Part shown: positions 1-29,246 of the stretch, piece after piece
Position numbering within the stretch: the stretch's first letter is position 1
Layout: each line of letters begins with the position of its first letter
Assembly (NCBI GenBank): GCA_031370645.1
Contig: JANMQV010000175.1
Location: 1 to 31,266, forward strand
Origin: Candidatus Eiseniibacteriota bacterium
Lineage (GTDB): Bacteria; Eisenbacteria; RBG-16-71-46; SZUA-252
Direction of reading: 5' to 3'
DNA: 31,266 bases
Translations under genes and position numbers: made by a program
Notes under the pieces: generated by a model
What the model was told of the DNA's origin: nothing
Seen by the model: only the letters and a program-made list of their open reading frames with translations
Database searches by the model: none

Positions 1-2
1 CG

Positions 3-485: not shown

Positions 486-899
486 ATGAATCGCCCTTAC
501 CTTCGACTCGCCCTCGCCGTGCTTGTCGTAGGAGTCGCCCTCGGTCTCCTATCGCGACTCCCTCGGCGCGAGCCCGCAAGACTTCATCCGACGCCTGCCG
601 CCGCGCGCATCGTGGTCTCCGTCGAGCTCGGCGCCGACGGCTCGGTCACGACCGATCCAACGTCGGTCCCGAAAGGGGCGTTCCTGATGCTCCGCGCCGT
701 GAATCTTGGGACCCTCCCCCGCACGCTCTCCCTCTCGGGGTACGAGGAGCGCCTCCGGCTGGTAGTCACACCGGGCGAATTCGCCCACGCGATCCTCCGC
801 GCCGATCGACCCGGAAGCGACCTCGCCTGGCTGGTGAATGGAACTCCGACGGGACGATTCGCGGTGACCGGGTCGCACCTCGAGGAGGAAACACCGTGA
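486..899 (+). CDS. Membrane-anchored protein with a cupredoxin-like beta domain, no obvious Cu ligand set
   Basis: GGAGG precedes GTG483/ATG486; N-terminal TM helix; 'PTSVPKGAFLMLRAVN...ADRPG' resembles cupredoxin strands; stop overlaps the next start (GTGA). Confidence 0.55.
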   Translation: MNRPYLRLALAVLVVGVALGLLSRLPRREPARLHPTPAAARIVVSVELGADGSVTTDPTSVPKGAFLMLRAVNLGTLPRTLSLSGYEERLRLVVTPGEFAHAILRADRPGSDLAWLVNGTPTGRFAVTGSHLEEETP

Positions 900-1735: not shown

Positions 1736-1738
1736 CGT

Positions 1739-2944
1739 GTGACGATTCCGCTTCCCGTCCGTGAGGCGCCGAGAGTCATTCCGGGGCGCGAGCCCTACCG
1801 GCGGCTCTTCCCGCTCGGCATCGTCATCGGATGGACCGGGGTGGGACTCTGGATCGCGCACGCGGCGGGGTGGATCGCCTACCCGGGAACGCTTCACGCC
1901 ACGCTCCTTCTCCTCGGATTTCAACAATGTTTCGTCCTCGGCTTTCTCATGACGGCGATGCCATCTTTTCTCCACGCTCCGCATTGCCGAACGGCGGAAC
2001 TTGCGGCGGCGCTCGCGCTGGTCGGGGCCACGGCGACCAGCGCGCTTTTCGATTGGGGTACGGCGGCGGGTCTCTTCTATCTCGGAAGCCTCGGGGTTCC
2101 GGTCTGGATGGCGGTGAGCCGCCTCATGGGAAAAGAGCACGGTCCCCCTCCCGAGGAATTCATCCTGGTGGCGGCGGGCTTCGCGACGGGGATGGTCGGC
2201 GCGGTATGGATGGTGGGCGCAGCGGCGGGACTCTGGACCGAACCCGCTCCACGTTTCGGTCTCCGGCTGATCGGATTCGGAATGATTCTCCCGGTCGTCC
2301 TCGGCGTTGGCGGACTTCTCGTCCCTACCTTCATGGCGATGCGGGAGCCGCTCACGATACCGGGCATCGCGCGCGCGCATGAGCGCGGGCCGCGGCGCGT
2401 GCTCTACGCCCTCATCGTTCTCTTCTTAGTCGGCGCCGTCGCGATGGAGGGATCCGGACTCCCGATCGCCGCCGCCTGGATTCGCGCCATCGTCGGGAGC
2501 GTGCTCCTTCTTTGGGTCTGGAAACTCTTCCGCCTTCCGGGGCGCGCCGACCGACTCTCCTACGCGCTCTGGTCCTCCGGATGGCTCCTCTTCATCGGAC
2601 TCTGGCTCGGCGTCCTCGTTCCGGCGCGGCCGCTTCTCGGAGAGCACGTGGTCTTCATCGGCGGGTTTGGATTCCTCACGCTCGGTATCGCGACCCGCGT
2701 CGTGGTGCGACACGGTGGCTATCCGCTCGCGTTCGAATCGCGCGTGATCGGAATCGCGGCGCTCGCCTTCCTCGGCCTGGCGCTTTTGCTTCGCGCGTTG
2801 GCCGAGCCGCTCGATCCGGCCGGCGCCGCGAAGACGTGGACGCTCGCCGCCGCGGCCGCCGCCTGGATGGCTGCCTGGGGGCGATGGGCTTGGAAGGCCG
2901 TGCCGCTCGCGCTCCGCCTCCCGCCCAACTCGCCGAAGCCGTAG
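1739..2944 (+). CDS. nnrS: NnrS family membrane protein (NO stress)
   Basis: 'EPYRRLFPLG', 'HATLLLLGF...LGFLMTAMP', 'HVVFIGGFG...ATRVVVRHGG'; many TM segments. Confidence 0.8.
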   Translation: MTIPLPVREAPRVIPGREPYRRLFPLGIVIGWTGVGLWIAHAAGWIAYPGTLHATLLLLGFQQCFVLGFLMTAMPSFLHAPHCRTAELAAALALVGATATSALFDWGTAAGLFYLGSLGVPVWMAVSRLMGKEHGPPPEEFILVAAGFATGMVGAVWMVGAAAGLWTEPAPRFGLRLIGFGMILPVVLGVGGLLVPTFMAMREPLTIPGIARAHERGPRRVLYALIVLFLVGAVAMEGSGLPIAAAWIRAIVGSVLLLWVWKLFRLPGRADRLSYALWSSGWLLFIGLWLGVLVPARPLLGEHVVFIGGFGFLTLGIATRVVVRHGGYPLAFESRVIGIAALAFLGLALLLRALAEPLDPAGAAKTWTLAAAAAAWMAAWGRWAWKAVPLALRLPPNSPKP

Positions 2945-15647: not shown

Positions 15648-16262
15648 TCAGTTGTTCTTGACGACGATGCCTTCGAGGATGTTCGCCACGTCCTCGCAGT
15701 CGTCGGTCGTGGCCTCGAGACGCCCGTAGAGCTCCTTCCACTTGATCAGCTCGCGGAAGTCGGCGGCGTCATCGAACAGTCGCGCCGTGCTGGCGCGGGA
15801 AATGTGGTCGGCTTCGTTCTCGAGCTGATTGATCTGCACGCAGTATTCGTGGATGCGCTTGAAGTCTCGCAGGTGCCGCACCGCCTCGTGGATCGCTCCG
15901 CACGCCTTCTCGATGATCGAGATCAAGTGAACCGTCTCGGGCGTGATCTTCTCGATCCTGAATAGCGCGAAGCGGCTCGACACGCCTTCGATGTTGTCGA
16001 GCACGTCGTCAAGCGCGCTCGCCAGGGCGTGGATGTCTTCCCGGTCGAACGGCGTGATGAACGTTCGGTTTAGGTTGTCGATGATGGAGTGCGTGATGCT
16101 GTCGCCGCGGCTCTCGAGTTCTTTGATGTGCTGGGCCTTCTCGGCGACGCGCTCGTAGTTGTGCGCCATCTCCTGGAGCGCGCGCGCGGCTTCCAGAACA
16201 GTCGCGGCCTGCGTTTCGAAGAGGTCGAAGAACTTCGGCTCGACGGGCAAGAGTCTCAACAC
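15648..16262 (-). CDS. DUF47 / PhoU-like phosphate transport regulator
   Basis: 'LNRTFITPFDREDIHAL', 'LENEAD', 'IKWKELY..LE...D.CEDVANILEGIVVK'; typical upstream partner of pit. Confidence 0.93.
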   Translation of the reverse strand: MLRLLPVEPKFFDLFETQAATVLEAARALQEMAHNYERVAEKAQHIKELESRGDSITHSIIDNLNRTFITPFDREDIHALASALDDVLDNIEGVSSRFALFRIEKITPETVHLISIIEKACGAIHEAVRHLRDFKRIHEYCVQINQLENEADHISRASTARLFDDAADFRELIKWKELYGRLEATTDDCEDVANILEGIVVKNN

Positions 16263-16270
16263 GGCGGCGC

Positions 16271-16276
16271 AGTGTA
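16271..16276 (-). promoter_or_regulatory. -10 element (TACACT) 8 nt before GTG16262; candidate leaderless promoter of the DUF47-pit-MFS unit
   Basis: TANNNT hexamer; no SD before the GTG. Confidence 0.45.
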
Positions 16277-16327
16277 ACGAGGAAGTTCCGAAACTTCTAC
16301 TCCCGAGGCGGCTCCGCGCGCCCGCCA

Positions 16328-16383
16328 GCCTGTCACGTGCCGCCTGTCATCCTGGCAGTCCTAACCCCCGCCAAATTCGGCAG
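16328..16383 (+). promoter_or_regulatory. Candidate upstream activator sequences for a sigma-54 enhancer-binding protein
   Basis: GCCTGTCA repeated at 16328 and 16342; imperfect dyads CTGTCA-N3-TGGCAG (16344-16358) and GCCAAATTCGGC (16370-16381); about 75-130 bp upstream of the -24 box. Confidence 0.4.
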
Positions 16384-16402
16384 CCCACAATTGAACTGAA
16401 GG

Positions 16403-16426
16403 CTAAGCACTTACCACTAAGCACTT
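16403..16426 (+). repeat. 10-bp direct repeat CTAAGCACTT x2; IHF-like TAA-N4-TT cores between the UAS and the sigma-54 promoter
   Basis: Exact copies at 16403-16412 and 16417-16426 in an AT-richer stretch. Confidence 0.55.
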
Positions 16427-16456
16427 TGTGTGGCTATTAGCGACATTTTTCACGAG

Positions 16457-16472
16457 TGGTATGGTGCTTGCT
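16457..16472 (+). promoter_or_regulatory. Sigma-54 (RpoN) -24/-12 promoter of the cytochrome operon
   Basis: TGGTATG-GTGC-TTGCT matches TGGCACG-N4-TTGCW with exact GG-N10-GC spacing. Confidence 0.75.
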
Positions 16473-16611
16473 GACTCAAGTGGCTGATCAAATGCCGTCG
16501 CCCGAGTCGGTTACACCTCCCAGACCGATGGGTGTATCGCCCGGTAGACCGAAGGCCACCTTGGTAGAAGTGCCTGTAAGCCCGACGATTGGATCGAGGA
16601 GAAAGAGACCG

Positions 16612-17586
16612 ATGACCCGTCGCCATCAGAACAGAGCCCGCATCGTCGCCACCTCCTCGATTGCTGCCCTTCTCGCCCTCTCGATTCCCTTCCAGCCCTC
16701 TCGCGCCTCGGTGGTCGCACCGGAGCTGGTGCTGAGCGGCTTCTCCGCCGACGCGACGTTCAAGGTTCCGCGCGCAGTCGCACTCGACACCGCTCACGGC
16801 GAGATTTTGGTCGGGAACACTGGCGCCCACACGATTGAAGTCTTCTCGCTCGCGGGACGTCCGCTCGCACGCTACGTCCACCGGGTGGAACGCCGGGACG
16901 GCGCTTGGGTCGACGGCGAACCGACCGCGTTGGCGGTCGACTCGGCGGGGCGAATTCTGGTGATCGACGCCGCGGCGGGCTATGTCGATGTCCTCGACGG
17001 CCTCGGCCGCGCCTACGCGCGCCTGCAGCCGCCGCTCCCCAAAGGGAACCACGGACCGGGCGCGGTGACCGTGCTACGGAGCGGCGAAATTCTCGTCGGG
17101 ATGTCGGGTGAAACTGGCCGGGTCTATCGCTTCACGCGCGAATACGCGCAGTCCGGGTCGTGGGGCGAGGCCGGCCGGACGCCCGGTCACGTTCGGAATG
17201 TCCGCGGGCTGGCGGAGGAGCCGGACGGCTCGATCCTCGTCCTCTGCCCCGACACCGATCTCGCGGTGCAGCGGTACTCCCCCGCCGGCGCCTACCTCGG
17301 CGGCTTCGGCCGGCACGAGATCGGCGAAGGAAACTTCTCCTTCCCGTCAGGAATCGCCGTCACCGCGGACGGACGACTCTATGTGACCGACGAGTTGAGG
17401 CATCTCGTGGTGGTGCTCGACGCAACGGGGCGGCAACTCGACGTCATCAGTGGCGGCGATGCCGGTCTCGGACTCTTTCAATATCCAAGCGCCCTCGCTA
17501 GCGACGGACAGGGCCGGCTAGCCGTCATCGAACGAGGGTCCGCTCGTTTGCAGCTCCTGCGTCTCGCAGGAAACAATCCGGAATGA
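16612..17586 (+). CDS. Secreted NHL-repeat beta-propeller protein
   Basis: GAGGAG then ATG16612; signal peptide ending 'SRA'; repeats 'FKVPRAVALD', 'PTALAVDSAGRILVID', 'FSFPSGIAVTADGRLYVTD', 'FQYPSALASDGQGRLAV'. Confidence 0.88.
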   Translation: MTRRHQNRARIVATSSIAALLALSIPFQPSRASVVAPELVLSGFSADATFKVPRAVALDTAHGEILVGNTGAHTIEVFSLAGRPLARYVHRVERRDGAWVDGEPTALAVDSAGRILVIDAAAGYVDVLDGLGRAYARLQPPLPKGNHGPGAVTVLRSGEILVGMSGETGRVYRFTREYAQSGSWGEAGRTPGHVRNVRGLAEEPDGSILVLCPDTDLAVQRYSPAGAYLGGFGRHEIGEGNFSFPSGIAVTADGRLYVTDELRHLVVVLDATGRQLDVISGGDAGLGLFQYPSALASDGQGRLAVIERGSARLQLLRLAGNNPE

Positions 17587-17597
17587 AGCGTAACACG

Positions 17598-17646
17598 GAG
17601 GTGGGAAGGCCCATCCGCGATACCACCTCGCACGAAACTCGGATGG
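17598..17646 (+). promoter_or_regulatory. Candidate H-type pseudoknot or switchable RNA structure at the RBS of the OmcS-like gene
   Basis: GAGGTGG(17598-17604)/CCACCTC(17623-17629) and CCATCCG(17611-17617)/CGGATGG(17640-17646): two perfect crossing 7-bp helices. Confidence 0.4.
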
Positions 17647-17660
17647 AGGGAGGCTTCCTC

Positions 17661-18665
17661 ATGAAACGCTTCGCGATCGTAGGTGCAGGGTGCCTGCTGG
17701 CGTTCGCGGCCACGGCAACCGCCGGCGATTTTCACACCGGCGCGAGCCTTGTCTGTAGCGACTGCCATGTGGCGCACTACAGCCAGTCGCACGATTACGG
17801 CGGCTCGGCTTCCGAATTCGTTCCGCTCGGCGCGGGCGGACCGTTCACGCATCTCCTCCGCAACGAGGTGAACGAGTTGTGCTTGACCTGTCATGACGGC
17901 GAGCCTGGGGTGCCCGATGTGTTCGGGTCCAACGCCTTCAACACGAATCGGCTCGCGGGCGGCCTGAACGCGGCCGCCGGACATCGTAGCAATGACACGA
18001 ACTTCGACGACCCGGACGGCCACACGCTTTGGTCCACGGCGACGGCGCCGGGCGGCACGTTCTCGCACGCTACCGACGGCCTCGAGTGCACCGACTGCCA
18101 CGCGCAGCACGGCAGCGCGACCCAGTACCGCAACTTGCTCAATCGCGGGATCTTCACGGGCAAGAACCTCACGTACGCCATCACGACGAACGATCTCACG
18201 AAGGACGTCTACGAACGCTCGCCGGCATCGTACAATGTCGCAGACGTCGACTATAACGAACCGAACACGAACGCCAGCGCCTATGCGAACTGGTGCAAGT
18301 CGTGCCACACCGATTTCCACGGCGCGAGCGGCGGCCCCGAGGTCGGCGGACAGAGCAACGGCGGCACCGGGTGGGATCGGCATCCCCAGGCGGACGTCAA
18401 TATCGGCCAGAACGCGACCTTCATCTCGAGTCTCTCCGTGTTCAACAGCCGCACGAATCACGTGAAGGTGATGGACTCGCAGGGCCTCTGGAACGGGACG
18501 ACGGCGGACAACACCGTGACGCCGACGTGCTTCTCGTGTCACAAGTCACACGGTAACCAGAACAGCTTCGCCTTGATCTTCATGAAGGGCACCGGAACCG
18601 TGACGGAAGAGGGCGATGGCGGCGCGTACAAGGACCTGTGCAAGCAGTGCCACATCCAGGGCTAA
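17661..18665 (+). CDS. Hexaheme c-type cytochrome, OmcS-like (nanowire subunit candidate)
   Basis: Strong SD; Sec signal ending 'ATA'; 6 CXXCH (CSDCH, CLTCH, CTDCH, CKSCH, CFSCH, CKQCH); OmcS-like landmarks FH-x6-CxxCH-xx-H, GH...TAPGGT, YR.L, WCxxCHTD.H, RHP, terminal LCxxCH. Confidence 0.85.
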   Translation: MKRFAIVGAGCLLAFAATATAGDFHTGASLVCSDCHVAHYSQSHDYGGSASEFVPLGAGGPFTHLLRNEVNELCLTCHDGEPGVPDVFGSNAFNTNRLAGGLNAAAGHRSNDTNFDDPDGHTLWSTATAPGGTFSHATDGLECTDCHAQHGSATQYRNLLNRGIFTGKNLTYAITTNDLTKDVYERSPASYNVADVDYNEPNTNASAYANWCKSCHTDFHGASGGPEVGGQSNGGTGWDRHPQADVNIGQNATFISSLSVFNSRTNHVKVMDSQGLWNGTTADNTVTPTCFSCHKSHGNQNSFALIFMKGTGTVTEEGDGGAYKDLCKQCHIQG

Positions 18666-18680
18666 TCTCCTAGCTTCACC

Positions 18681-18723
18681 CCGGCTCGGCCGGCCCCTCC
18701 GGGGGCCGGCCGTCCGGTTATTT
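18681..18723 (+). terminator. GC-rich hairpin after the OmcS-like gene (partial terminator or 3' stabiliser)
   Basis: CGGCCGGCCCC-TCCG-GGGGCCGGCCG (18687-18712), extended by CCGG/CCGG and followed by TTATTT. Confidence 0.65.
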
Positions 18724-18791
18724 GAGCGCTTCGCACCACACACGGATGTCTTCAGTCCCTCGCGTCGCGGCGAAGGGGACGGCGGTGCAGA

Positions 18792-20225
18792 ATGAGACCA
18801 ACGACGAAGTGCGAGGCGCGCGCGCTGATCGACGCGCGTTCTCTCCTCCGGCTCGCGGCGCTCCTGGCGCTCGGAGCCGGCTCGCTCGGCGCGGGCCCCG
18901 GCCCCCATCGGACGAGCGCGGAGATCTCCGGCATTCTCGCGCAGGGGCCGCACGCGGGCGCCTGCGACGCCTGCCACGTCGCGCACGGGCAGGAGGGTGA
19001 ACTCCCCGAACTCCACGCTCTCGTCGGACCCGACGACAACTCGCTCTGCGATCGCTGCCATTCGACGGCATGGTCCGGCGGATCGTATCCGGGGCCGCTC
19101 GTCTATTCGCGCTCGTCCCACGGCTCGGATGGAAACGCCGTGTGGCCGGGACCGGTGCCCCCCACGCGCACGGAGCCGGGAGCCGCCGGAAAGTGCGTAA
19201 ACTGTCACGATCCGCACGGCCAGAGCGACGCGAATGGCGAGATCCCGTCGTTGGGTCTCGCCCGCGAAGAATCGCTCTGCCTCACCTGTCACGATGGGTC
19301 GCCGGCCACGTCCGATATCGCGTCCGAAACTCTCCTTCCGTACCGTCACCCCACGTCGTCTCTCTCGGGGCTCCATACGGGTCCGACGGAATCGTTCCCG
19401 ACCGACTTCGGCGCGGCACCACTCAACCGGCGCCACGCCGAGTGCGAGGATTGCCACAATCCGCACCTCGCCTATCACGATCCGTCGGGACCGCCGTCCG
19501 ACTCCGATCTCTCCAAGCGGAATCTCGGCGTGAGCCGACTTCGTGTTCAAAACGGCGGTCCGGGCGCGCCTCCGGCCTACGCCTTCGTCGCCGCGGCGGA
19601 CACGCTGAGCCCGGCGCTCACGGAATACGAACTCTGCTTTAAGTGCCACTCATCCTGGACGTCTCAACCGACGGGTCAAACCGACCTCGCGCTCGTCCTC
19701 AATCCCGCGAATCCGTCGTTTCACCCCGTCGAGGCTCCGGGACGGAATTCGTCGATCCGATTGGGCGCGTTCACGGCCGGATGGAACCCCGGTTCCACGA
19801 CGCGCTGTGGGTCGTGTCACGGAAGCGATACCGGCACGACCGAGGGACCCCACGGTTCGAATTACCGCTACATCTTGAAGCAGCCCTATACCGCATCGCC
19901 GTTCGAGCGGACGATGTTTCCCGAGGAGAGTTGTTTCGCCTGCCACTCCTACGATGTTTATGCGAACGCCTCCTCTCCCGGGCTCACGCTCGAGAATTCG
20001 CGTTTCAACGAGCCCGGCGCCGGGAAGGGACATGCCAAGCACGTCGACGAGGAGCGGGTCCCCTGCTATTCCTGCCATGCGACTCACGGCTCGACGACGC
20101 TTCCGCATCTTCTTCAGAAGGGGCGCTCCCCCGGAATTCAGTCGGTCACCGTGACCGCGACGGGCGGCACCTGCACGCCGACTTGCCACGACACGCAGTC
20201 CTACACGGTGAACTATGCGCGATGA
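18792..20225 (+). CDS. Multiheme c-type cytochrome (9 CXXCH + 1 CX3CH), paired-CXXCH type
   Basis: CDACH, CDRCH, CVNCH, CLTCH, CEDCH, CFKCH, CGSCH, CFACH, CYSCH, CTPTCH; hydrophobic signal 'LLRLAALLALGAGSLGA'. Confidence 0.9.
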   Translation: MRPTTKCEARALIDARSLLRLAALLALGAGSLGAGPGPHRTSAEISGILAQGPHAGACDACHVAHGQEGELPELHALVGPDDNSLCDRCHSTAWSGGSYPGPLVYSRSSHGSDGNAVWPGPVPPTRTEPGAAGKCVNCHDPHGQSDANGEIPSLGLAREESLCLTCHDGSPATSDIASETLLPYRHPTSSLSGLHTGPTESFPTDFGAAPLNRRHAECEDCHNPHLAYHDPSGPPSDSDLSKRNLGVSRLRVQNGGPGAPPAYAFVAAADTLSPALTEYELCFKCHSSWTSQPTGQTDLALVLNPANPSFHPVEAPGRNSSIRLGAFTAGWNPGSTTRCGSCHGSDTGTTEGPHGSNYRYILKQPYTASPFERTMFPEESCFACHSYDVYANASSPGLTLENSRFNEPGAGKGHAKHVDEERVPCYSCHATHGSTTLPHLLQKGRSPGIQSVTVTATGGTCTPTCHDTQSYTVNYAR

Positions 20226-21891
20226 TCCCGCCCGGCGCCGGAGGCACAAACGCTCGGGGAGTTTCGCGGCGGCGCTCGCCGGGGCGCTCCTGATCGCCCC
20301 GGGACCCCGCTCGGGATTTGCGGAGACCCTTCGGGGCTACGCGCGGCTCCAATACCAGAGCCAAGACCAACGGGGCGGCCAAGGCGACGACGTCGAGTGG
20401 TGGCTCCGCACGGTTCATCTCGACTACGGGACGAAACTTCGAAACGATTACGACATTACGGTGCAGGGCGAGTGGAACGACCTCTCGTACGTCGATCGCC
20501 CCGACCGTCGGATCGATCCGCGCGGATCGATTCGGCTCGCCCACCGCGACTTTGGTGGCGCCACCTCCTACCGTCCGCTCCGCGTCACCGACGCCCAGGG
20601 CGCGACGACGCGCCAGCGCGAGACCACCGCGAGCGGTTATCTCCGCGCCAGGAACCTTCCGCAACTGAACGGGACCTATATCCGCCGTCGGCAACTTTCG
20701 GTCAGCCGCTCGCCGGCGACTACATCCATGACGGGGACGATCAACGCATTCTATGACCTCGGCGCCGTCGACCTGCGCGCCGGGTGGAACAACCAGGTGC
20801 GCTTTACCGATCTCGACGACCAGAATCGAGTCAGCCAAGTGAATTGGACGGGTGGCGGATCTTGGAGCGTTGCTCGCCGCGCCAGTTCCGCGAACGCGAG
20901 CGTCGAATTCCAGGAGGGGCGCCGTCATGCGGAGCACGGATTGACCACGTCTTCCTCCGGACGCTCGGCGACGCTCGCCGGCGCGCACCGTTTCTCGCGG
21001 CGCGTCGACGCCGGGCTCACCTACGGCTATCGGCACTCCGCCGCGACGAATTTAACGACCCGGCAGCTCGACGATCACGACGGCGTGCTCCTCTTCTCCT
21101 ACCGGCCGCGTCCTGCCGTGACCTTCTCGAGCGGGGGCGGCCTCCGAACCGCACGGGTCGAGGAGCGGCGTGAGATCGAGCGCTACCTCGTCGCCTCGGC
21201 CGCGGCCCAGGGGACGATTCGCCCGGGCTGGTCGGGGGGCGCGAGCATCGCGCGGTCGTACAACTGGCTCCCTGGCGAAACGTCGAGACCGGTCGACGCA
21301 GGGACGCTCACGAGCCGCTTGCGGCTCACACACGGTCTCGACGTGAATGCCCAGACGCAAGTGACCGCCGCCCGACCGAGCTCGACCGTGGCCGACACCT
21401 CGGGCGCTCCCACTCGCGTCACCTCCCAGACGACCCTCGGATTCCTCGCGACGCCACTCCATGCCATCACGTTCGGCTACTCCCGAAGCGAGTACCGATC
21501 GGGGGATGACGTCTTCTCCCCTCGATCCCGCTCCCGCAGCGACGCCTGGGACGGTCGCTGGAATCCCGTGCCCTCGCTTCGGTTTTCTGGCAACCTGAGC
21601 CGCGCTCGCGGGCTAAATGCACAGGAGCCGTCGCTACGCACGCGCCAGGCGACCACGGTCTGGGCGCCGAGCAGTGCGTTTCAGTTGAGCGGGACGTATA
21701 CGCGAAACGACCGGAGCCAATTCGCCGCCTTCAGCCAGAGTGCGGCGGGGCGCGAGGTCTATGGCGTGCGGCTTCTCAGTTCAATCGCGCGCGAGTGGCG
21801 CGTGCAAGTTTCCGTCAATGACGTGGATCCCGGGCAGCCGACGCACGTGCGGCAGTGGGACGCCACGGTGACCCGAAACGTCCGGAGGTAA
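20215..21891 (+). CDS. Putative outer-membrane beta-barrel (porin of a porin-cytochrome conduit)
   Basis: Signal peptide ending 'GFA'; amphipathic strands throughout (LRGYARLQY, YDITVQGEW, VDAGLTYGY, LRFSGNLS, FQLSGTYT, WRVQVSV); no TM helices; sits among cytochromes. Confidence 0.65.
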   Translation: MRDDPARRRRHKRSGSFAAALAGALLIAPGPRSGFAETLRGYARLQYQSQDQRGGQGDDVEWWLRTVHLDYGTKLRNDYDITVQGEWNDLSYVDRPDRRIDPRGSIRLAHRDFGGATSYRPLRVTDAQGATTRQRETTASGYLRARNLPQLNGTYIRRRQLSVSRSPATTSMTGTINAFYDLGAVDLRAGWNNQVRFTDLDDQNRVSQVNWTGGGSWSVARRASSANASVEFQEGRRHAEHGLTTSSSGRSATLAGAHRFSRRVDAGLTYGYRHSAATNLTTRQLDDHDGVLLFSYRPRPAVTFSSGGGLRTARVEERREIERYLVASAAAQGTIRPGWSGGASIARSYNWLPGETSRPVDAGTLTSRLRLTHGLDVNAQTQVTAARPSSTVADTSGAPTRVTSQTTLGFLATPLHAITFGYSRSEYRSGDDVFSPRSRSRSDAWDGRWNPVPSLRFSGNLSRARGLNAQEPSLRTRQATTVWAPSSAFQLSGTYTRNDRSQFAAFSQSAAGREVYGVRLLSSIAREWRVQVSVNDVDPGQPTHVRQWDATVTRNVRR

Positions 21892-21893
21892 GC

Positions 21894-22487
21894 ATGAGGT
21901 TCCCGCTTCCGGCCCTGGTCCGCCGCGCGGCGCTGGTGGTCCTTCTCGCGGCCGCCACGGGGTGCGCGGCGGGACCGCGGCTCTATGTCAACTCGCAGGC
22001 CGATCTTTCGTTCTATAAGAAGATCGCGGTCATCCCCTTTCGCAATTTGACCAACGAGCGATTCGCGGGCGAGCGCGTGACACGCGCGTTCCTGACCGAG
22101 TTGGTCATGACCGAGCACTACGAGATCGTCGACCAAAACGAGTTTGCCGCAGCACTCGACAAGATTGGCGGTAATCCCGGATTCGAAGGTATCTACGACC
22201 CCGCCAAGGTGAGGGAAGCCGCCACGCAGATCAGCGCCTCCGGCGTGCTCCGAGGCAGCGTCACCGAATACACGATGCAGCGAAGCGGCACGTCCGACAT
22301 ACCCGTCGTGGCCTTCGACGCCGAGTTGATCGATGTCGCGACGAGCAACGTCGTCTGGCGCGGTTCGGTGGTGCGGCGCGGCAAGGGTCGCGTTCCGCTC
22401 TTCGGCGGTGGCGCACGGACGTATGGGCAGCTGGTCCAATCCGCGACGCGCGAACTCGTCCGGCAGATCGAGCGCGAGGCATTCTGA
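21894..22487 (+). CDS. Lipoprotein with CsgG/PelC/DUF799-like alpha/beta fold
   Basis: GGAGGT then ATG21894; lipobox 'ATGC'; 'KKIAVIPFRNLT', 'VLRGSVTEY', 'AELIDVATSNVVWRGS'. Confidence 0.75.
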   Translation: MRFPLPALVRRAALVVLLAAATGCAAGPRLYVNSQADLSFYKKIAVIPFRNLTNERFAGERVTRAFLTELVMTEHYEIVDQNEFAAALDKIGGNPGFEGIYDPAKVREAATQISASGVLRGSVTEYTMQRSGTSDIPVVAFDAELIDVATSNVVWRGSVVRRGKGRVPLFGGGARTYGQLVQSATRELVRQIEREAF

Positions 22488-22489
22488 CC

Positions 22490-23107
22490 ATGCGCTCCCG
22501 CCTCGCGTCCTACGCGATGACGCTCTCGGTTCTCCTGGTGACAGGGTGCGCGGGGAGCGCCCCCCCACGGTCGCACGGCGGGGCGGTCCCAACGGACCAT
22601 CCACGCATCGCCCTGCTTCCGTTCGAGAATCTATCCGGGCGGGAGGAGCAGGGTCGCTTCTTCACGCAGGCGTTCCTAGCGGCTCTGGTCAGCAGCGATG
22701 CCGCCGAGATCGTCGACCTCGGGCACGTGGAGGCGACAGTGGAAGCGCTACGAATTAGAGCGACCGCCGCGCCCAGCCGCGAGCAGTTGGCCGCGCTCGG
22801 GGAGTCGCTCCAGGTTCGATACGTACTTCTGGGGAGCGTGCTCGAAGCGGGGACGATTCGTACGAACGATGGCGATGTCCCGTCTGCCGGCGCTTCGCTC
22901 CGGCTCGTCGACGTCACGAATGCCCGGGTCGTTTGGGCAAGGGCGCACGTGGTGTCCGGCGACGATCGGGAAACATTCTTCGGATGGGGCCGCGAGCGGA
23001 GCGCCGGACGGTTGCTCACGAACCTGGCGGACGACATGCTTCGCCCCTTTCGCGAAGCGGGTGACGCCTGGCGGCATCGGACGGCCGCTCGCGGAGAGGC
23101 TCGATGA
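22490..23107 (+). CDS. Second CsgG/PelC/DUF799-like lipoprotein (paralogue)
   Basis: Lipobox 'VTGC'; 'RIALLPFENLS', 'YVLLGSVLE', 'LRLVDVTNARVVWA'. Confidence 0.75.
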   Translation: MRSRLASYAMTLSVLLVTGCAGSAPPRSHGGAVPTDHPRIALLPFENLSGREEQGRFFTQAFLAALVSSDAAEIVDLGHVEATVEALRIRATAAPSREQLAALGESLQVRYVLLGSVLEAGTIRTNDGDVPSAGASLRLVDVTNARVVWARAHVVSGDDRETFFGWGRERSAGRLLTNLADDMLRPFREAGDAWRHRTAARGEAR

Positions 23108-23118
23108 AGGAGGCGACG

Positions 23119-23628
23119 ATGGGTTGGGTCAAGAGGTCGAGCCGGTACCTGGCTCCGGCGCTGCTACTCCTGCTGCTTGGTGGAGCCCTCGGCGCCAAGT
23201 CGGCGACCGCTCCGGTCGCTTCGCACGGGGCGCGCGTGAAGTCGGTGACGCTCGCGATGCGGCACCGGGTCTTCAAGAATTTCAGCGACCTGCAGGAGGT
23301 GACACTGCTTAAGGAGTTCCCGGTCGGAGATTCCGATTTCTCCGCCCGCGTCGTTCGCTACGTCCCCGACTTCATGATGAATTTGAAGAGCGGGAACGTC
23401 ACCTCCCGCTCGAACGAGCCGAAGAATCCGGCGTTTCAGATCATCGTGCGCGAGAAGAAGGTGGTTCAGGACACCACCTGGGCCTTCATGAATCTTCCGC
23501 CTCACTTCGGACGGAAATCGATGTTGGCCTTCAAGATCGTGCGCATCGATTTCCTCGGCGCCCCGCCCGTCGTGGCCGACACCACGCACGCAGCCCCGAC
23601 AACCGCCGCGGGCGGAACGAAGCCGTGA
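23119..23628 (+). CDS. Exported protein resembling the periplasmic domain of ResB/Ccs1 cytochrome c biogenesis proteins
   Basis: AAGGAGG then ATG23119 (alternative start ATG23104); signal peptide; 'RYVPDFMM...VTSRSNEPKNPAFQIIV'. Confidence 0.5.
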   Translation: MGWVKRSSRYLAPALLLLLLGGALGAKSATAPVASHGARVKSVTLAMRHRVFKNFSDLQEVTLLKEFPVGDSDFSARVVRYVPDFMMNLKSGNVTSRSNEPKNPAFQIIVREKKVVQDTTWAFMNLPPHFGRKSMLAFKIVRIDFLGAPPVVADTTHAAPTTAAGGTKP

Positions 23629-26600
23629 CACTCGTTCGGCGCGCCATCCGGCCACGCGGCATCGCCGCGGTGGCCGCGATCGTGGCCGCACTCTTCCTCA
23701 CCGGCTCCTTCGTGGAAGCGGCCGGCCCGAAGAAGAGCGAGCGAGCCCAGCGCGCCTGCTACGACTGCCACAAGACCGCGAAGGAGGAGTACCGGAAGAA
23801 GGTCGTGCACGCTCCGGTAGCGAAGAACGACTGCTACTCCTGCCATCAGAGCCACGGCTTCAAGCAGAACCTCGTCCTCCAGAAGAAACTTCCCGAACTC
23901 TGCTTCGAGTGCCACAAGAACACCAAAGAGTCGGTCCCCCAGCATCAACACGAGGCGTTCGCCAAGGGAGACTGCCTCGGCTGCCACGACCCCCACGCAT
24001 CGAACCAGCCGGCGCTGATGCGCGACGGCGGCCCCACGACCACGTGCTTCAAGTGCCACGAGCAAGCCGCGGCAGCCGCGAAAGAGCCTCACGTCCATGC
24101 CGCGTTCGCCAAGGGCGACTGCGCCGCGTGCCACACGTCGCACGGCTCGGCCGAGCCGGGGCTCTTGCGTGGCAAAGGCGACGCGCTATGCGCCACCTGC
24201 CACGTCCCGGCCGAGATGGCCACGAAACACTCCAAGGCCCCCGCCGCCGGACTCGCGTGCCTCGACTGCCACGAGCCTCATGCTTCCCCGAAGGCGAAGC
24301 TCCTCCGGCGAAATGCGCACGCGCCCGTCGCCGAGGGGGATTGCGCCGCGTGCCATGTGATGCAGGGCACGACCGCCACCCCACGCCTGACCGCGGCCGT
24401 TCCGAAGCTCTGCATGGAGTGCCACGAGGAGATCGGCGAACAGACCACGAAGTCACACAAGCATCCGCCCGCGGCGGAGGGCGAGTGCCTGGCCTGTCAC
24501 GATCCTCATCGGGGCACCGAGCGCGCGTTATTGAAGAAGAAGCCCGATGCGCTCTGTGGTGAGTGTCACGACGAAATCGCGGCGGTGAAATCGAAGCCGG
24601 TCCAGCATCAAGCTTTCACGCTCGGGAAGTGCGCCTCCTGTCACGAGCCGCACGGGAGCGAGAACGAAAAACTGGCCAAGACTGCGGACGGCACGATGTG
24701 TCTCGCCTGCCACGACCCGATCGCGAAGAAGATCGGAGCAACGGCGGGCGTCCACCCTCCCGCCGGGAAGAAGGATTGCCTCCGCTGTCACGCACCACAC
24801 GCTTCAGAGCAGGCCGGACTCCTGGTCAAGCCGGCGCGCGACGTTTGCCGCCCTTGCCACGCAAATCTCGACCAGAAGCTCGCGGGATTGGAAGTCCATC
24901 CTCCGTTCCGTTCCGGGAATTGCCAGGCCTGCCACGATCCGCATCAGTCGAACGAGCCGGCGATGCTTCGCGCCAAGGCGGTCGAAGTCTGCACGTCGTG
25001 CCATCCGCAGGCGATGCGGGAAGCCCAGCAGGCCTTCCCTCACGACCCGGCGAAGAAAGGCGACTGCCTCGCCTGCCACGCGCCGCACGGAGGGCAAACG
25101 AAAGCGCTCCTCGTCGCGAAGCCCGTGGATCTTTGCACCAAGTGTCACGCCGGCATCGCCCTGAAACTGAAGAGCGCCGGCGCCCATACCGCGGCGGCGA
25201 AGGGGATGTGTGCGGCCTGCCATGAACCGCATGGCGCGAAGGCGGAGAAGCTCTTGAAGGCCCCGCCGAGCGCACTTTGCCTCTCCTGCCACGCGGGTAT
25301 CGGCAAGGAGGGACCTGAAGTCCATCCACCGGTCGCCGAGCAGGAATGCCTGAGCTGCCACGACCCCCACGGGGGAAAGGCGGCGCCGGCGCTCGTGAAG
25401 TCCGTCCCCGCCCTTTGCACCGATTGCCACGACCTCGCGGATCAGGATCTTTCAAAGGCGCATGGAGGGGCGGCGTTGACCGGAGTGAATTGCCTCTCGT
25501 GCCACACGGCGCACGCGTCGGCCCACAAAGGTCTTCTCGCCGCGAAGACGCATCCCGGCTTTGCGGAGAAGGGGTGCACGAAGTGTCACGCGGCGGGGGC
25601 CCCGCCGAGCGCCACCTCGCTCGCCAAACCGAAGGCCACCCTCTGCGCGAGCTGTCACGATGTGCCGAAGCGCGGAACGCCGGCCGCGCGGGTCCACCCG
25701 CCGGCGGCGAAGGGCGACTGTGTGGCCTGCCACTCTCCCCACGCTTCCGACGAGCCGTCGCTTCTTGCCGACGCGCCGAAGCGCCTCTGCGTGAAATGCC
25801 ATGCGGCGGTCGTCGCGGATGCAGGGCGTTCGCATGCGCATCCCCCGGCCGCCGCCGGGGAGTGCATGAGCTGTCACAAGCCCCACGAGAGTTCGGAACC
25901 GGCGCTCTTAGCGAAGGCGGTTCCGGCGCTCTGCCAGTCGTGTCACGGTTCGCTCCTGAAACGCGTCGCGGAGGGCGTGCCGCACAAACCGGTCGCGTCG
26001 GGCAAGTGCCTCATCTGCCACGCGAGCCACGGTTCGGACAACGAGGGAATGACGAAGGACCGTGCGGCGGGAAACGTTTGCACCGGGTGCCACCTGGCAG
26101 CGAAAGGCGAACTCGACGCCAAGCATCAGGGCTTCTCCGTCGCGAAGTCGAACTGTGTCTCCTGCCACGACCCGCACGTTCAGGCGAAAGGCCGAAAGGG
26201 GCTCCTCTTGAGTTCGCCGCACGAACCGTTCGCGCGGCTCGAGTGCGCGAAGTGTCATGGGACCGACAAACGAGGCATCCCGATTGCCCGGGGGACGGCG
26301 CTCTGCTTCCAGTGCCACGAGACGGCGAAGGCTTGGCTGGCGAAGCCGGTGGTCCATCAGCCGCTGAAGACCGACCGCGCCTGCCTCTCCTGCCACGGCG
26401 CGCACGGCGGCTCGGCCGCACCGGTGCTTCGCCGCGAAGCCGACAAGCTCTGCATGAGCTGCCACGGAGACCGGCTCTTCAAGGGGAAGGTGCGGCACGC
26501 GGCGCTGGATGACGGCTGCGCGTCGTGTCACGAACCGCACGCGGGGACAAGGCCGAAACTTCTGAAGAACGACGTGAATGCCCTCTGCCAGGGGTGCCAT

Positions 26601-26789
26601 GACGATCTCACGAAGCACGCGCACCGGACGAGCGGCGGACGCGATCCTCGGACGGGCCAACCGCTCACGTGCGTCGGCTGCCATCTCCCCCATACCTCGG
26701 ATCTCCCGTCGCTCCTGCCCTACGAGTCGAAACGGGAGCTCTGCCTGCAGTGCCACGATCCAACGATGACGGCGCCCAAAGATCGGTAG
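23625..26789 (+). CDS. Very large multiheme c-type cytochrome, 42 CXXCH motifs (cytochrome c3 / doubled-CXXCH repeats)
   Basis: 42 CXXCH counted by hand in 1054 aa; repeating H.P....CxxCH.PH.....LL......LCxxCH unit; signal peptide ending 'VEA'. Confidence 0.95.
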   Translation: MTLVRRAIRPRGIAAVAAIVAALFLTGSFVEAAGPKKSERAQRACYDCHKTAKEEYRKKVVHAPVAKNDCYSCHQSHGFKQNLVLQKKLPELCFECHKNTKESVPQHQHEAFAKGDCLGCHDPHASNQPALMRDGGPTTTCFKCHEQAAAAAKEPHVHAAFAKGDCAACHTSHGSAEPGLLRGKGDALCATCHVPAEMATKHSKAPAAGLACLDCHEPHASPKAKLLRRNAHAPVAEGDCAACHVMQGTTATPRLTAAVPKLCMECHEEIGEQTTKSHKHPPAAEGECLACHDPHRGTERALLKKKPDALCGECHDEIAAVKSKPVQHQAFTLGKCASCHEPHGSENEKLAKTADGTMCLACHDPIAKKIGATAGVHPPAGKKDCLRCHAPHASEQAGLLVKPARDVCRPCHANLDQKLAGLEVHPPFRSGNCQACHDPHQSNEPAMLRAKAVEVCTSCHPQAMREAQQAFPHDPAKKGDCLACHAPHGGQTKALLVAKPVDLCTKCHAGIALKLKSAGAHTAAAKGMCAACHEPHGAKAEKLLKAPPSALCLSCHAGIGKEGPEVHPPVAEQECLSCHDPHGGKAAPALVKSVPALCTDCHDLADQDLSKAHGGAALTGVNCLSCHTAHASAHKGLLAAKTHPGFAEKGCTKCHAAGAPPSATSLAKPKATLCASCHDVPKRGTPAARVHPPAAKGDCVACHSPHASDEPSLLADAPKRLCVKCHAAVVADAGRSHAHPPAAAGECMSCHKPHESSEPALLAKAVPALCQSCHGSLLKRVAEGVPHKPVASGKCLICHASHGSDNEGMTKDRAAGNVCTGCHLAAKGELDAKHQGFSVAKSNCVSCHDPHVQAKGRKGLLLSSPHEPFARLECAKCHGTDKRGIPIARGTALCFQCHETAKAWLAKPVVHQPLKTDRACLSCHGAHGGSAAPVLRREADKLCMSCHGDRLFKGKVRHAALDDGCASCHEPHAGTRPKLLKNDVNALCQGCHDDLTKHAHRTSGGRDPRTGQPLTCVGCHLPHTSDLPSLLPYESKRELCLQCHDPTMTAPKDR

Positions 26790-26838
26790 AGGAGCGTGGC
26801 GCCTGGAGGCGGCCGATCAGCGGAACAAGCGACTCCTG

Positions 26839-27264
26839 CTATGAAAGTAGCGTGGCGTCGAGAGAAATCGCCGCGTTCAGCGCCCGCGACACGATGCACC
26901 CCGCCTTCGCGCCTTCCGCGATCTTGGCAAATTCTTCCGGTTTCGCCCCAGGGACCTTGGCCGTGAGTGTCAGATGCGAGGCGGTGATCGTGAACCCCGC
27001 TTCCAACTTCTCCAACGTGACCTTCGCGGTCGTCTCGATCCGTTCGGCGGTGAAGCCCGCGGTTTGGAGTTGGAGGGAGAGGGCCATCGAGAAGCAAGCC
27101 GCATGCGCCGCGGCGATCAGCTCCTCGGGATTCGTGGCGGGCGCGGATTCGAAGCGCGAACCGAAGGAGTAGGGGGAGCCGCGAAGAACACCGCTCTCGG
27201 TGGAGACGGTGCCTTTGCCTTCGCGGAGGTTGCCCTGCCAGACAGCGGAGCCGGATCGGATCAT
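26839..27264 (-). CDS. osmC: OsmC family peroxiredoxin
   Basis: CAGGAG then ATG27264; 'RSGSAVWQGNLREGKG', 'TNPEELIAAAHAACFSMAL', second Cys in 'AKAGCIVSRAL'. Confidence 0.95.
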   Translation of the reverse strand: MIRSGSAVWQGNLREGKGTVSTESGVLRGSPYSFGSRFESAPATNPEELIAAAHAACFSMALSLQLQTAGFTAERIETTAKVTLEKLEAGFTITASHLTLTAKVPGAKPEEFAKIAEGAKAGCIVSRALNAAISLDATLLS

Positions 27265-27398: not shown

Positions 27399-29246
27399 TT
27401 ACTTCGCCATCACCATCTTCACGACGTCGGAGGTGATTTCGGCGCCCTTCTCGTCCACCACCGTCGCCTTCGCGAAGTAGATCCCCGTCGGCGCGGGGCC
27501 GCGTCCGGCGGAACCGTCCCACTGGACTTCGTGCGACCCGGCCGGGAAGAGGCCGCTCGCGAGCGTCTTCACGTGTTCGCCCCGCACGTTGAAGATTCGG
27601 AGGTCGAGTCGGCCCGGCTTGGCGAGGGCGAAGCGGATCGTGGTGCTCGGATTGAACGGGTTCGGCGCGTTCTGGAGCAGGCGCACGGCATGGCCCGGCG
27701 GATTGCCGGTGTTGACCTGCGCGAAACCGAATCCGACGAAGCGACGTCCGCGAACGGACGAATAGGCCTGCACCTCGCACGGCACGACGCGATTCACGAG
27801 GCCAAAGCTGATCAGTCGCGCTTCGACGTCTCTCCGGCTCAAGTTCATCTGGAAGGCGTAGTGCCCCGACTTCACGACGTTGTCCACGGACGTGTAGGGC
27901 GAGCCATTGACGGGCGACGTCGGCGCTTGGAGTCCCACGAAGGTCGGGCTGAGGAGTATGTTGCTTCGATTCTTCACGCCTTCCGTCCCCGCGGGAATTG
28001 CGCCGCCGTGATCAACCACGTCGGCCTGCGCCCGGTACCCGAACGCCTCCGTCTCCGGCGGCATGCTGACGGTCACCGTGACGGTCTTTCCGTTGCTTCC
28101 AAGCCCGAGCGTCGTCGGACTGACGTCCACCCCGAGCGGCAGCGGAGGGAGGCAACTGATCCAGCTCCCGCGCCAGATGCCGACACCCTGCTTCGCCGCC
28201 TGGCTCGACATGAGGAAGAGGTTGTAAGGCACCGGATCGAGCGACGTGTTCGTCCGTCGAGAAACATCGGGGTCCGCGTCTCCGGTTGCATCGAGATGAA
28301 TGTCGCACTTCGCCTGGGTGGCGAGGTCGAGGCGCCAGATGTCGCTGTTCTTCTCGCCATCTTCGTCTTCGGGAGCGTCGTAATAGATCGATCCGCCATC
28401 GGGGGCCCAGGACGGATTCCGGTGGCCGACCTGCGCGAAATTGGTCTCCGCGAGACGGACGCTGGAGTCGCCGAGGTCGACGATTTCGAGGAGGTCGGCG
28501 CCGAACTTCTGAGTCACATACACGATCTTATTTTCCGGTCCCCACGACGGCGACATTTCCGAGGTCCGATTGTCCGTCGTCGCTTGCGTCGGGGTGCCGA
28601 CGGTTCGCGTGGCGGCGTCCACCGGAACGATGATGATGTCGAGCGAAGGTCCCGCCCTGTTCGAGGAATAGGCGATCGCATCGCCCGCGGGGCTCCAGGA
28701 GGGAGATCGATTGCGAAGTCCGTCGGCCCCGGCCGCGATCAGGAGCGGCGGGCCGACCGCTGTCGCGGCTTCGGCCGAATTCTCGCTCAGCCTGTACTCC
28801 TGGACGTAGATCTCGGTCCGGACGACGAGCGGATCGGTCTTCACGTAGGCGAGATATTTCCCATCCGGGCTCCAGGCGGGATCGGCGTACGACACCGTGG
28901 CCGTCGGATCGAGGAGCAACGGGCGCCGCGCGTCGAATATGTTAGGAAGTCGGAGTCCGGCTTGATCGAGATTACGCCCGAGCCAAATGGAGCGCGCGGT
29001 CTCTCGCCCCACCACCGAACTCCTGGTGGAGAATGCGTACCAGCGTTCCACGATCTCGTGCCCGCCCGTGGGCGCGTAGAGGCCGGGACGAAGACTCGGT
29101 TGCTCGCAGCCGTTCGGGAGGCCGGCATTGAAGATCGTGCCGATCGTGAGGTAGTCCCAGACGCCTCGAAGCGACGCGGAGGCGGGAATCGGCAGGAGCG
29201 TGAGTCCGAGCGCGAGCGCCAGGGCCTGTCGTAGATGTCTCTTCAT
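27399..29246 (-). CDS. Secreted TolB-like (PD40) beta-propeller protein with C-terminal FlgD-Ig / T9SS-type sorting domain
   Basis: Signal peptide ending 'ASA'; 'DPAWSPDGKYLAY', 'SPSWSPAGDAIAY', 'NPSWAPDGGSIYY'; C-terminal 'QNAPNPFNPSTTIRF...IFNVRGEHV...WDG...TGIYFAK...KMVMAK'. Confidence 0.85.
   Translation of the reverse strand: MKRHLRQALALALGLTLLPIPASASLRGVWDYLTIGTIFNAGLPNGCEQPSLRPGLYAPTGGHEIVERWYAFSTRSSVVGRETARSIWLGRNLDQAGLRLPNIFDARRPLLLDPTATVSYADPAWSPDGKYLAYVKTDPLVVRTEIYVQEYRLSENSAEAATAVGPPLLIAAGADGLRNRSPSWSPAGDAIAYSSNRAGPSLDIIIVPVDAATRTVGTPTQATTDNRTSEMSPSWGPENKIVYVTQKFGADLLEIVDLGDSSVRLAETNFAQVGHRNPSWAPDGGSIYYDAPEDEDGEKNSDIWRLDLATQAKCDIHLDATGDADPDVSRRTNTSLDPVPYNLFLMSSQAAKQGVGIWRGSWISCLPPLPLGVDVSPTTLGLGSNGKTVTVTVSMPPETEAFGYRAQADVVDHGGAIPAGTEGVKNRSNILLSPTFVGLQAPTSPVNGSPYTSVDNVVKSGHYAFQMNLSRRDVEARLISFGLVNRVVPCEVQAYSSVRGRRFVGFGFAQVNTGNPPGHAVRLLQNAPNPFNPSTTIRFALAKPGRLDLRIFNVRGEHVKTLASGLFPAGSHEVQWDGSAGRGPAPTGIYFAKATVVDEKGAEITSDVVKMVMAK

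Follow-up and report, generated by a model that had tools for sequence, protein, structure and literature searches.

A compact omcS-companion-like gene cluster in Candidatus Eisenbacteria, a candidate operon for extracellular electron transfer

We studied a DNA stretch of 31,266 nucleotides (contig JANMQV010000175.1 of assembly GCA_031370645.1; "the window" below) from a metagenome-assembled genome (MAG) of Candidatus Eisenbacteria, the host being an uncultured bacterium of sediment. Eight open reading frames (ORFs), here g1 to g8, lie head to tail on its + strand between positions 16456 and 26789, and all encode products of the exported type. One of them, g2, is a hexaheme cytochrome related to OmcS of Geobacter sulfurreducens. 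The locus is real and conserved: it is a compact, lineage-wide FCB variant of the published omcS-companion (osc) system and not a new kind of system. In our assessment, it probably acts as a sigma-54-dependent operon for extracellular electron transfer, in a form characteristic of Eisenbacteria and the FCB group.

The features of the locus are the following.

16457..16471, + strand: candidate sigma-54-type -24/-12 promoter, GG-N10-GC, with 2 mismatches to TGGCAC-N5-TTGC
16612..17586, + strand: g1, exported NHL-repeat beta-propeller; the ORF opens at 16456 (376 aa), the protein probably has 324 aa from M53
17661..18665, + strand: g2, OmcS-family hexaheme c-type cytochrome; the ORF opens at 17583 (360 aa), 334 aa from M27 including the signal peptide; 6 CxxCH
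18792..20225, + strand: g3, decaheme cytochrome, candidate partner of the barrel; 477 aa; 9 CxxCH and 1 CxxxCH
20215..21891, + strand: g4, large outer-membrane beta-barrel of about 28 strands according to its AlphaFold2 model; 558 aa
21894..22487, + strand: g5, PelC-like outer-membrane lipoprotein, paralogue 1; the ORF opens at 21855 (210 aa), or 197 aa from 21894
22490..23107, + strand: g6, PelC-like outer-membrane lipoprotein, paralogue 2, by profile comparison with PelC; 205 aa
23104..23628, + strand: g7, small exported protein of an unnamed conserved family; 174 aa; invariant P133-H134 in a PPHF-like motif
23625..26789, + strand: g8, 42-heme cytochrome built of 21 paired-CXXCH units, likely a periplasmic heme rod; 1054 aa; 42 CxxCH

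ORF calling and translation bear out the description of eight co-directional genes with export signals that was given in a first-pass annotation of this DNA. A hydrophobic signal-like segment opens 8/8 products, and g5 and g6 additionally carry a lipobox. The number of heme motifs claimed there, 58, was also reproduced by counting on the translations (57 CxxCH and 1 CxxxCH): g2 has 6, g3 has 10, including the CxxxCH, and g8 has 42. The statement that the genes mostly overlap or abut holds for five junctions. Three of them overlap by 4-11 nt (g3/g4, g6/g7 and g7/g8) and two abut (g4/g5 and g5/g6), whereas gaps of about 75 nt and 126 nt separate g1 from g2 and g2 from g3. These distances assume that g2 starts at M27, which is likely because the family alignment fixes this position.

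The hexaheme cytochrome is a distant relative of OmcS

Profile comparison identifies g2 as a true but distant member of the OmcS family. Pfam finds only generic multiheme domains in the protein. A profile of 30 sequences matched OmcS (6ef8_A) with an E value of 6e-9 in three collinear stretches, the first of which begins at residue 1 of mature OmcS. When the profile was built from 74 sequences, chosen among the cluster representatives of an exhaustive search, OmcS (PDB 6EF8) was matched in a single stretch with an E value of 2.2e-22 and 82.7 bits. This match pairs profile positions 31-350 with residues 1-404 of the 407 in OmcS, so that the "OmcS-type" label of the first-pass annotation stands over the full length of the protein. 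The next PDB chains followed at about 3e-6, namely 7tfs_A ("Cytochrome c"), which we take to be the OmcE filament, and 9yuq_N ("putative multiheme cytochrome c").

The family is large. A word-seeded search returned 713 proteins at E <= 0.001, and the best 120 of these 713 are all at least 56% identical. The exhaustive profile search gave 755 cluster representatives at the same threshold, 188 of them at <= 1e-30.

All six heme motifs of g2 align with the six of OmcS (6EF8/6NEF) in the same order. The g2 stretch His-x7-CxxCH-x2-His falls on the mature N-terminus of OmcS, where both proteins have a histidine beside an aromatic residue, then heme motif 1 and a histidine at +3 after it (the position of OmcS His16). 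A G-H pair, histidines after motifs 3, 4 and 5 and an R-H-P stretch are also shared. The two proteins differ in length, as mature g2 has about 310 residues against 407 in OmcS.

Five histidines outside the motifs (His25, 39, 121, 150 and 297) are invariant in 74/74 family sequences, and two more reach at least 90% in the same alignment. In number, these invariant and near-invariant residues are sufficient for bis-histidine ligation of six hemes. Among 79 loci collected from other genomes (see below), the His-x7-CxxCH-x2-His stretch is present in 78 (66 recognised by a regular expression and 12 by eye among the 13 remaining). Six motifs are kept in 77/79 g2 orthologues, and the two exceptions are truncated ORFs.

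In OmcS, His16 reportedly ligates heme 5 of the neighbouring subunit (Wang et al. 2019). A review passage likewise states that a distal histidine of the adjacent OmcS subunit ligates a heme across the interface. By analogy, g2 might polymerise into an OmcS-type filament, a step that we regard as quite conceivable and on which we would not yet rely.

The locus resembles the Geobacter osc cluster

The osc cluster of G. sulfurreducens is reported to span GSU2505/2504-GSU2493 and was described by Shen et al. in 2025 (Cell Chem Biol 32:239), in an article whose title calls it widespread and ancient. According to passages of a more recent preprint, the eight genes GSU2500-GSU2493, downstream of the OmcS-like GSU2501, are linked to maturation and secretion of OmcS nanowires, and OscI carries 26 hemes (10.1101/2025.11.06.686851). 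Passages of another source equate oscC with GSU2501, oscI with GSU2495 and oscJ with GSU2494, and assign OscH to folding, OscE/F/G to secretion and OscD to morphology (PMC13194489).

A contig from a metagenome (L090) provided a sequence-level comparison. It encodes a 437-aa member of the g2 family whose cluster source label is Deltaproteobacteria. Its genes follow the order reported for osc. They encode three hexahemes, an NHL protein, a 7-heme cytochrome, a 462-aa propeller, a 689-aa protein with no Pfam match, an LpoB-like lipoprotein, a double GNA1162/CsgG-like protein and a peptidyl-prolyl isomerase (PPIase) of the PPIC type; the contig ends ahead of the position of the giant cytochrome. 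BLASTP connects five products of the window with their positional counterparts on this contig: g1 (1.3e-29, 27% identity), g2 (1.3e-34), g3 (2.5e-14) and the lipoproteins g5 (1.4e-14) and g6 (1.6e-14). A phmmer search with the delta-type hexaheme P0251 gave no relevant match.

We call the window osc-like because its gene order matches that of osc and because BLASTP links these five genes to their L090 counterparts. In both systems, an OmcS-family hexaheme adjoins an NHL protein, and further cytochromes (one in the window) come next. The rest of the order also corresponds: by position, the Pfam-less barrel candidate g4 answers to OscE, the PelC-like pair g5 and g6 to OscF and OscG, and the giant cytochrome g8 to OscI. 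The composition and order reported in the literature passages, together with the L090 matches, thus agree with the likeness to the Geobacter companion set that had been proposed in the first-pass annotation.

There are also differences. The window has one hexaheme gene, whereas Geobacter has three (omcS, omcT and oscC), and its product falls short of OmcS by some 70 residues. The position at which L090 encodes its PPIC-type PPIase is occupied by g7, the giant cytochrome has 42 hemes instead of the 26 of OscI, and the host belongs to Eisenbacteria. In sum, the osc-like cluster of the window has neither a PPIase nor a second propeller; it has a single hexaheme, it includes g7, and its giant cytochrome binds 42 hemes by motif count.

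The cluster is conserved across several phyla

A scan of species-representative genomes yielded 115 relatives of g2, from which 79 loci were kept. All of them come from MAGs, and in many the contig ends within the locus. The majority bear the label Candidatus Eisenbacteria; the remaining labels include Zixibacteria, Latescibacterota, Krumholzibacteriota, Ignavibacteria, Gemmatimonadota, Fibrobacteraceae, Armatimonadetes and Glassbacteria. By tblastn, g1 was found in 75 of the 79 loci, g5 and g8 in 63 each, g6 in 62, g3 in 53, g7 in 49 and g4 in 34. At the barrel position, Latescibacterota and Zixibacteria have a Pfam-less protein of about 570 aa, which hhalign relates to g4 with 97% and 95.9% probability, respectively.

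In the Eisenbacteria loci, the gene order is identical to that of the window, and the Zixibacteria locus has the same parts in a different order. Conservation of gene order, which had been proposed as a check, is seen in this set of loci. Within the host phylum, the hexaheme was detected at E <= 1e-10 in 67/206 genomes, including 44/121 of high quality.

Several individual copies deserve mention. One hexaheme copy (G037:C2:501077-502042) contains 3 in-frame TGA codons and is likely a pseudogene. Near-complete copies of the cluster also occur on contigs labelled Acidobacteriota, Hyphomicrobiales, Saccharimonadales, Bacteroidota or Verrucomicrobiia (L005, L007, L008, L024, L033). Since L005 falls in the window's own genus, some of these deviant labels are probably errors of binning or naming and not cases of gene transfer. 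On a Latescibacterota chromosome (L046:15915-19096), the ORF of the giant cytochrome has only 608 aa and overlaps an ORF of 507 aa, which ends in a sorting domain of the type IX secretion system (T9SS) type (FlgD_ig, Por_Secre_tail, CHU_C). Either a shorter cytochrome is followed here by a T9SS cargo protein, or the reading frame has shifted.

The window belongs to a Candidatus Eisenbacteria MAG that comprises 3.0 Mb on 247 contigs and has a completeness of 95%. This assignment follows from same-genus hits that share coordinates with loci labelled Candidatus Eisenbacteria (L002, L006 and L049), and it agrees with the expectation that the host is not a member of Desulfobacterota. NCBI places Eisenbacteria under candidate phyla, and a passage of one paper groups them with the FCB superphylum.

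At least half of the window's DNA words occur in each of seven sequencing runs, which belong to two studies on sediment, freshwater or other; one of these runs may be the source. There was no RNA run among those listed as holding window DNA. A literature search for OmcS-like genes in Eisenbacteria or FCB phyla found only a survey based on FeGenie, the available passages of which list Eisenbacteria among taxa with iron-cycling genes and do not tie OmcS to them (PMC8478452).

A barrel, two PelC-like lipoproteins and a 42-heme cytochrome accompany g2

The fourth gene encodes an all-beta protein that matches no Pfam family and has no tetratricopeptide repeat (TPR) part. Its AlphaFold2 model, obtained with an alignment of 27 rows, has a pLDDT of 86.5 and a pTM of 0.68 and contains 31 strand elements, about 28 of them long strands, which substantiates the beta-barrel of the first-pass annotation. 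The top Foldseek match of the model is MtrB (6r2q_B, E 1.7e-9, TMq 0.48); with 8% identity, this is a similarity at the level of the fold only. Next came 22-strand TonB-dependent receptors and LptD, and transporters with 22-26 strands score nearly equally.

The lipoproteins g5 and g6 are paralogues (hhalign 100%, E 1.6e-39). The two lipoproteins named in the first-pass annotation are confirmed, and both are LpoB/PelC-like. Their closest solved relative is PelC. The g5 profile matched 5t11_A at 4.4e-10 and 9h80_C at 4e-5, and the g6 profile matched 9h80_C at 4.4e-15, 5t11_A at 8.6e-13 and 5t0z_A at 1.6e-9. PF13036 was found in g5 (4.4e-10). LpoB scored only 0.0012 to 0.05 with the two profiles. 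A CsgG-type channel was also considered for this pair and was set aside, as PelC is a far better match.

The 42-heme cytochrome g8 is covered by 21 stretches of PF09699 (3.2e-214). Among its orthologues longer than 1000 aa, which come from several phyla, 41/42 have exactly 42 CxxCH motifs. This strict count may reflect a fixed length requirement.

The decaheme protein g3 keeps 9 CxxCH in 35/50 orthologues, and neither Pfam nor NCBIfam finds a propeller domain in it. Prediction of a complex of g3 with g4 gave a score of 0.43 (0.43, 0.01 and 0.52 in separate runs), against 0.00 for the best of 3 controls. The runs share at least 27% of contacts, and the pLDDT of the partners is at least 73. The mark used for such scores was reached by 116/157 solved complexes and by 2/215 mismatched pairs. 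Among predictions scoring <= 0.60, it was reached by only 18/157 solved complexes and by both passing mismatches. Since custom alignments were used for g3 and g4, these benchmark counts hold only roughly for them. Additionally, the pass may reflect likeness to MtrAB, because the MtrAB structure has been solved. The prediction therefore lends weak support to binding of g3 to the barrel.

The first gene is an NHL propeller (PF01436, 2.3e-19), as had been stated. By contrast, the "ResB-like" label given to g7 in the first-pass annotation has to be dropped, as the protein matches nothing in Pfam, NCBIfam or, with a profile of 26 sequences, the PDB. None of the 26 family members rises above Pfam noise. 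Their alignment shows a core of about 110 residues with an invariant Pro-His pair. A search of the Atlas returned the protein's own cluster only, plus a weak lead to DUF2155.

Transcription signals

The candidate sigma-54-type promoter lies 155 nt ahead of the g1 start. Matches of this type are no more frequent in the window than by chance (19 against 19.8 expected), and the case for the promoter therefore rests on conservation of its position. In the four closest loci, a better motif is found at the equivalent distance, -153 to -157. Of the 66 loci with enough upstream DNA, 23 carry a motif of this type ahead of the NHL gene, compared with 6.35% of random 350-nt windows, and an rpoN gene was found in the host genome. 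Thus, the sigma-54 promoter of the first-pass annotation remains a candidate that is supported by its position across loci and not by how often the motif occurs in the window. Within 16200-27000, the search for sigma-70-like sites gave none, and the number of terminator-like sites in the region (7) is not above the 7.8 expected.

Other cytochromes of the host genome and neighbouring genes

The host genome contains 16 ORFs with at least 3 CxxCH motifs, 167 motifs in all. A second cytochrome cluster lies on contig C34 (L081:4521-12270, - strand). It encodes a 1012-aa protein in which 13 CxxCH motifs are fused to a C-terminal cytochrome b561 domain, as well as a 406-aa cytochrome b, a 9-heme protein and an 18-heme protein with an NapC/NirT-like N-terminus. 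In Geobacter, CbcL and the Cbc complexes are inner-membrane proteins that feed extracellular electron transfer. By analogy with these, the proteins of contig C34 are candidates for inner-membrane quinol oxidases feeding the system of the window. On contig C94 (L085:2167-5083, - strand), a 19-heme cytochrome adjoins a cytochrome b561-like protein. NrfA (cytochrome c552) is encoded together with an NapC/NirT-type partner on contig C233 (L089:1150-3646, - strand), which suggests nitrite ammonification.

The genes flanking the locus are housekeeping genes on the opposite strand: carAB, a PHO4/PhoU pair and OsmC. The first genes of the window (2-2944, + strand) encode a 577-aa membrane protein of the ABC-2 type, whose ORF is open at the window's edge, and then a protein of the NnrS family; such genes are often tied to NO/N2O metabolism. 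Downstream of the locus (27399-29246, - strand), there is a PD40/TolB-like propeller protein with a C-terminal FlgD_ig-type domain. Its tail was the basis for the claim that the host has a protein with a T9SS-type C-terminal domain. The score against TIGR04183 is 16.6 bits, below the cut-off of 23, so that only a sub-threshold signal is left of this claim.

Proposed mechanism

The analysis shows that g2 belongs to the OmcS family, that g5 and g6 are PelC-like and that g4 has a barrel fold, and it establishes the heme counts and the synteny across phyla. The localisation of the proteins, the order and direction of electron flow, the contact between g3 and g4 and the polymerisation of g2 are inferred. 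We propose a path from quinol oxidases through g8 and the g3/g4 station, with its g5/g6 ring, to g2 because the genome has Cbc-like inner-membrane cytochromes. Inner-membrane quinol oxidases encoded elsewhere in the genome would pass electrons to the 42-heme cytochrome g8 in the periplasm. The station at the outer membrane would consist of the MtrB-like barrel g4 and a ring of g5 and g6 on its periplasmic face, with the decaheme g3 in or at the barrel. The hexaheme g2 would be exported through or beside this station to act at the surface of the cell. There it would most likely form a polymer, each subunit using its conserved histidine at +3 after heme motif 1 to ligate a heme of its neighbour, in the manner of OmcS His16. 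The propeller g1 and g7 would serve as accessory factors in assembly or maintenance.

A more specific picture can be drawn, and we offer it as a long shot. In it, the FCB form would unite two designs that have hitherto been described apart: an Mtr-like barrel threaded by g3, whose periplasmic side would bear a hetero-ring of the PelC-like g5 and g6 as a dock for the rigid 42-heme rod, and an OmcS-type filament attached directly on the outside. The Pro-His family protein g7 would replace the PPIase and might handle heme or assembly, and 42 hemes would correspond to a fixed span of the periplasm.

Several results weigh against an osc-type operon with an extracellular filament. The likeness to the Geobacter set is drawn from published descriptions and from the delta-type contig L090. 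A pairwise phmmer search with g2 against all PDB chains returned neither OmcS nor any other cytochrome, for which reason we call the relationship distant; g3 likewise had no relevant PDB match by phmmer. The AlphaFold2 model of g2 (alignment of 30 rows) reached a pLDDT of 39.4 and is unusable. For the barrel, the g4 profile and the 689-aa protein of L090 show no homology detectable by hhalign (3.9%). The OscD-type propeller between hexaheme and barrel is absent, the decaheme g3 taking its place, and no rotamase domain, and hence no OscH-like PPIase, was found in the 8 genes and 23 flanking ORFs scanned. The score of g3 against the MtrA/DmsE family (TIGR03508) is 43.9 bits, the cut-off being 192.2. 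The hexaheme is patchy within the phylum: it is present in 6/7 genomes of the host's own genus and in 4/10 of another genus of the same family, and in 0/13 of a sister genus. As for the filament itself, a preprint passage states that of the four Geobacter paralogues only OmcS is known to polymerise (10.1101/2025.11.06.686851), and passages of the two osc sources report that a localisation predictor puts oscC in the periplasm (10.1101/2025.11.06.686851, PMC13194489). The conserved +3 histidine is probably common to the paralogues that do not polymerise and is hence not diagnostic of wires.

Alternative explanations

The main rival, by our own ranking, is a porin-cytochrome conduit of the Mtr/Pcc type with no filament, which we judge unlikely and yet worth serious consideration. 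In such a conduit, g3 would run through g4, g8 would bridge the periplasm, g2 would be a monomeric cytochrome of the periplasm or the surface, and the PelC-like ring would stabilise or dock the complex. MtrB of the Shewanella MtrCAB complex (6R2Q) is indeed the best solved match of the large barrel, the decaheme gene overlaps the barrel gene, the complex prediction speaks weakly for contact between the two products, and a monomeric g2 would be in keeping with the Geobacter paralogues just described. However, g3 is longer (477 aa) and scores far below the cut-off of the MtrA/DmsE family, and the window has no lipoprotein cytochrome of the MtrC/OmcA type. The structural match is modest, with transporters of 22-26 strands nearly as good. 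The PelC-like pair and the NHL protein belong to the osc set, and we know of no Mtr or Pcc cluster that includes PelC-like lipoproteins, an NHL protein or an OmcS-like protein. The OmcS-type N-terminus, with the equivalent of His16 invariant in 74/74 sequences, also argues against the bare conduit.

It is less probable still that the same hardware runs in reverse and takes up electrons from Fe(II) minerals, cathodes or partner cells for respiration, for instance reduction of nitrite or N2O; such a role has been put forward for PCC3 and Mto in iron oxidisers. Passages of PMC9900912 show that the PCC3 clusters of Gallionellaceae iron oxidisers combine a periplasmic cytochrome of 21-27 hemes with a porin and an extracellular multiheme cytochrome. 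The window resembles them in having a porin together with two kinds of multiheme cytochrome, one of them periplasmic and very long, and linear heme rods are predicted for PCC3 as well. The comparison is one of descriptions only, and those passages mention no OmcS-family, PelC-like or NHL protein for PCC3 (PMC9900912). Genes for Cyc2-type iron oxidases are reported in Eisenbacteria MAGs in a passage of PMC9769843, and uptake would further suit the NrfA with its NapC/NirT partner in the genome and the NnrS gene in the window. Sequence sets no direction of flow, however, and the closest characterised relatives, OmcS and osc, serve electron export in Geobacter according to the published passages, which favours the outward route of our proposal.

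Finally, we find hardly any room for a function apart from extracellular electron transfer, that is, a periplasmic multiheme complex for redox reactions or storage (a capacitor, or a reductase of soluble substrates) next to a barrel and lipoproteins that export some other cargo, such as polysaccharide in the manner of PelBC. Among solved structures, PelC (5T11, 5T10, 5T0Z, 9H80) comes closest to g5 and g6, with profile matches from 4.4e-15 to 4e-5, and the lipoprotein genes directly follow the barrel gene. PelC forms a 12-mer ring beneath the PelB porin, a 16-strand barrel preceded by TPR repeats. The window differs from Pel in having two PelC-like paralogues instead of one and a much larger barrel (about 28 strands) with no TPR part, and genes for the synthesis of Pel or another polysaccharide are missing from it. 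From one phylum to the next, lipoproteins and barrel always accompany the OmcS-like and giant cytochromes; presumably, the cargo or partner of g5 and g6 is a cytochrome and not a polysaccharide. A 42-heme protein could store electrons, an idea that has been raised for the large PCC3 cytochromes in a passage of PMC9900912.

Significance

The novelty of the locus is lower than the first-pass annotation had claimed, since the osc machinery was published in 2025, and the main limit on the value of the finding is that the osc system has already been published as widespread. Within this limit, anyone wishing to rebuild a cytochrome wire in a heterologous host would have in the eight-gene form, which does without a PPIase and extra paralogues, a candidate set smaller than the Geobacter locus. 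The reviews consulted describe the connection between nanowire and cell as still speculative. The count of 42 hemes, the hetero-pair of PelC-like lipoproteins and the g7 family offer testable handles on that connection.

In general, the conservation of this locus suggests that the OmcS-type outward electron route probably reaches well beyond Geobacter. If g2 polymerises, OmcS-type nanowires would be made not only by Geobacter and its relatives but also by common uncultured phyla of sediment and soil, namely Eisenbacteria, Zixibacteria, Latescibacterota, Krumholzibacteriota, Ignavibacteria and Gemmatimonadota. This would change which organisms in metagenomes are counted as respirers of minerals or electrodes.

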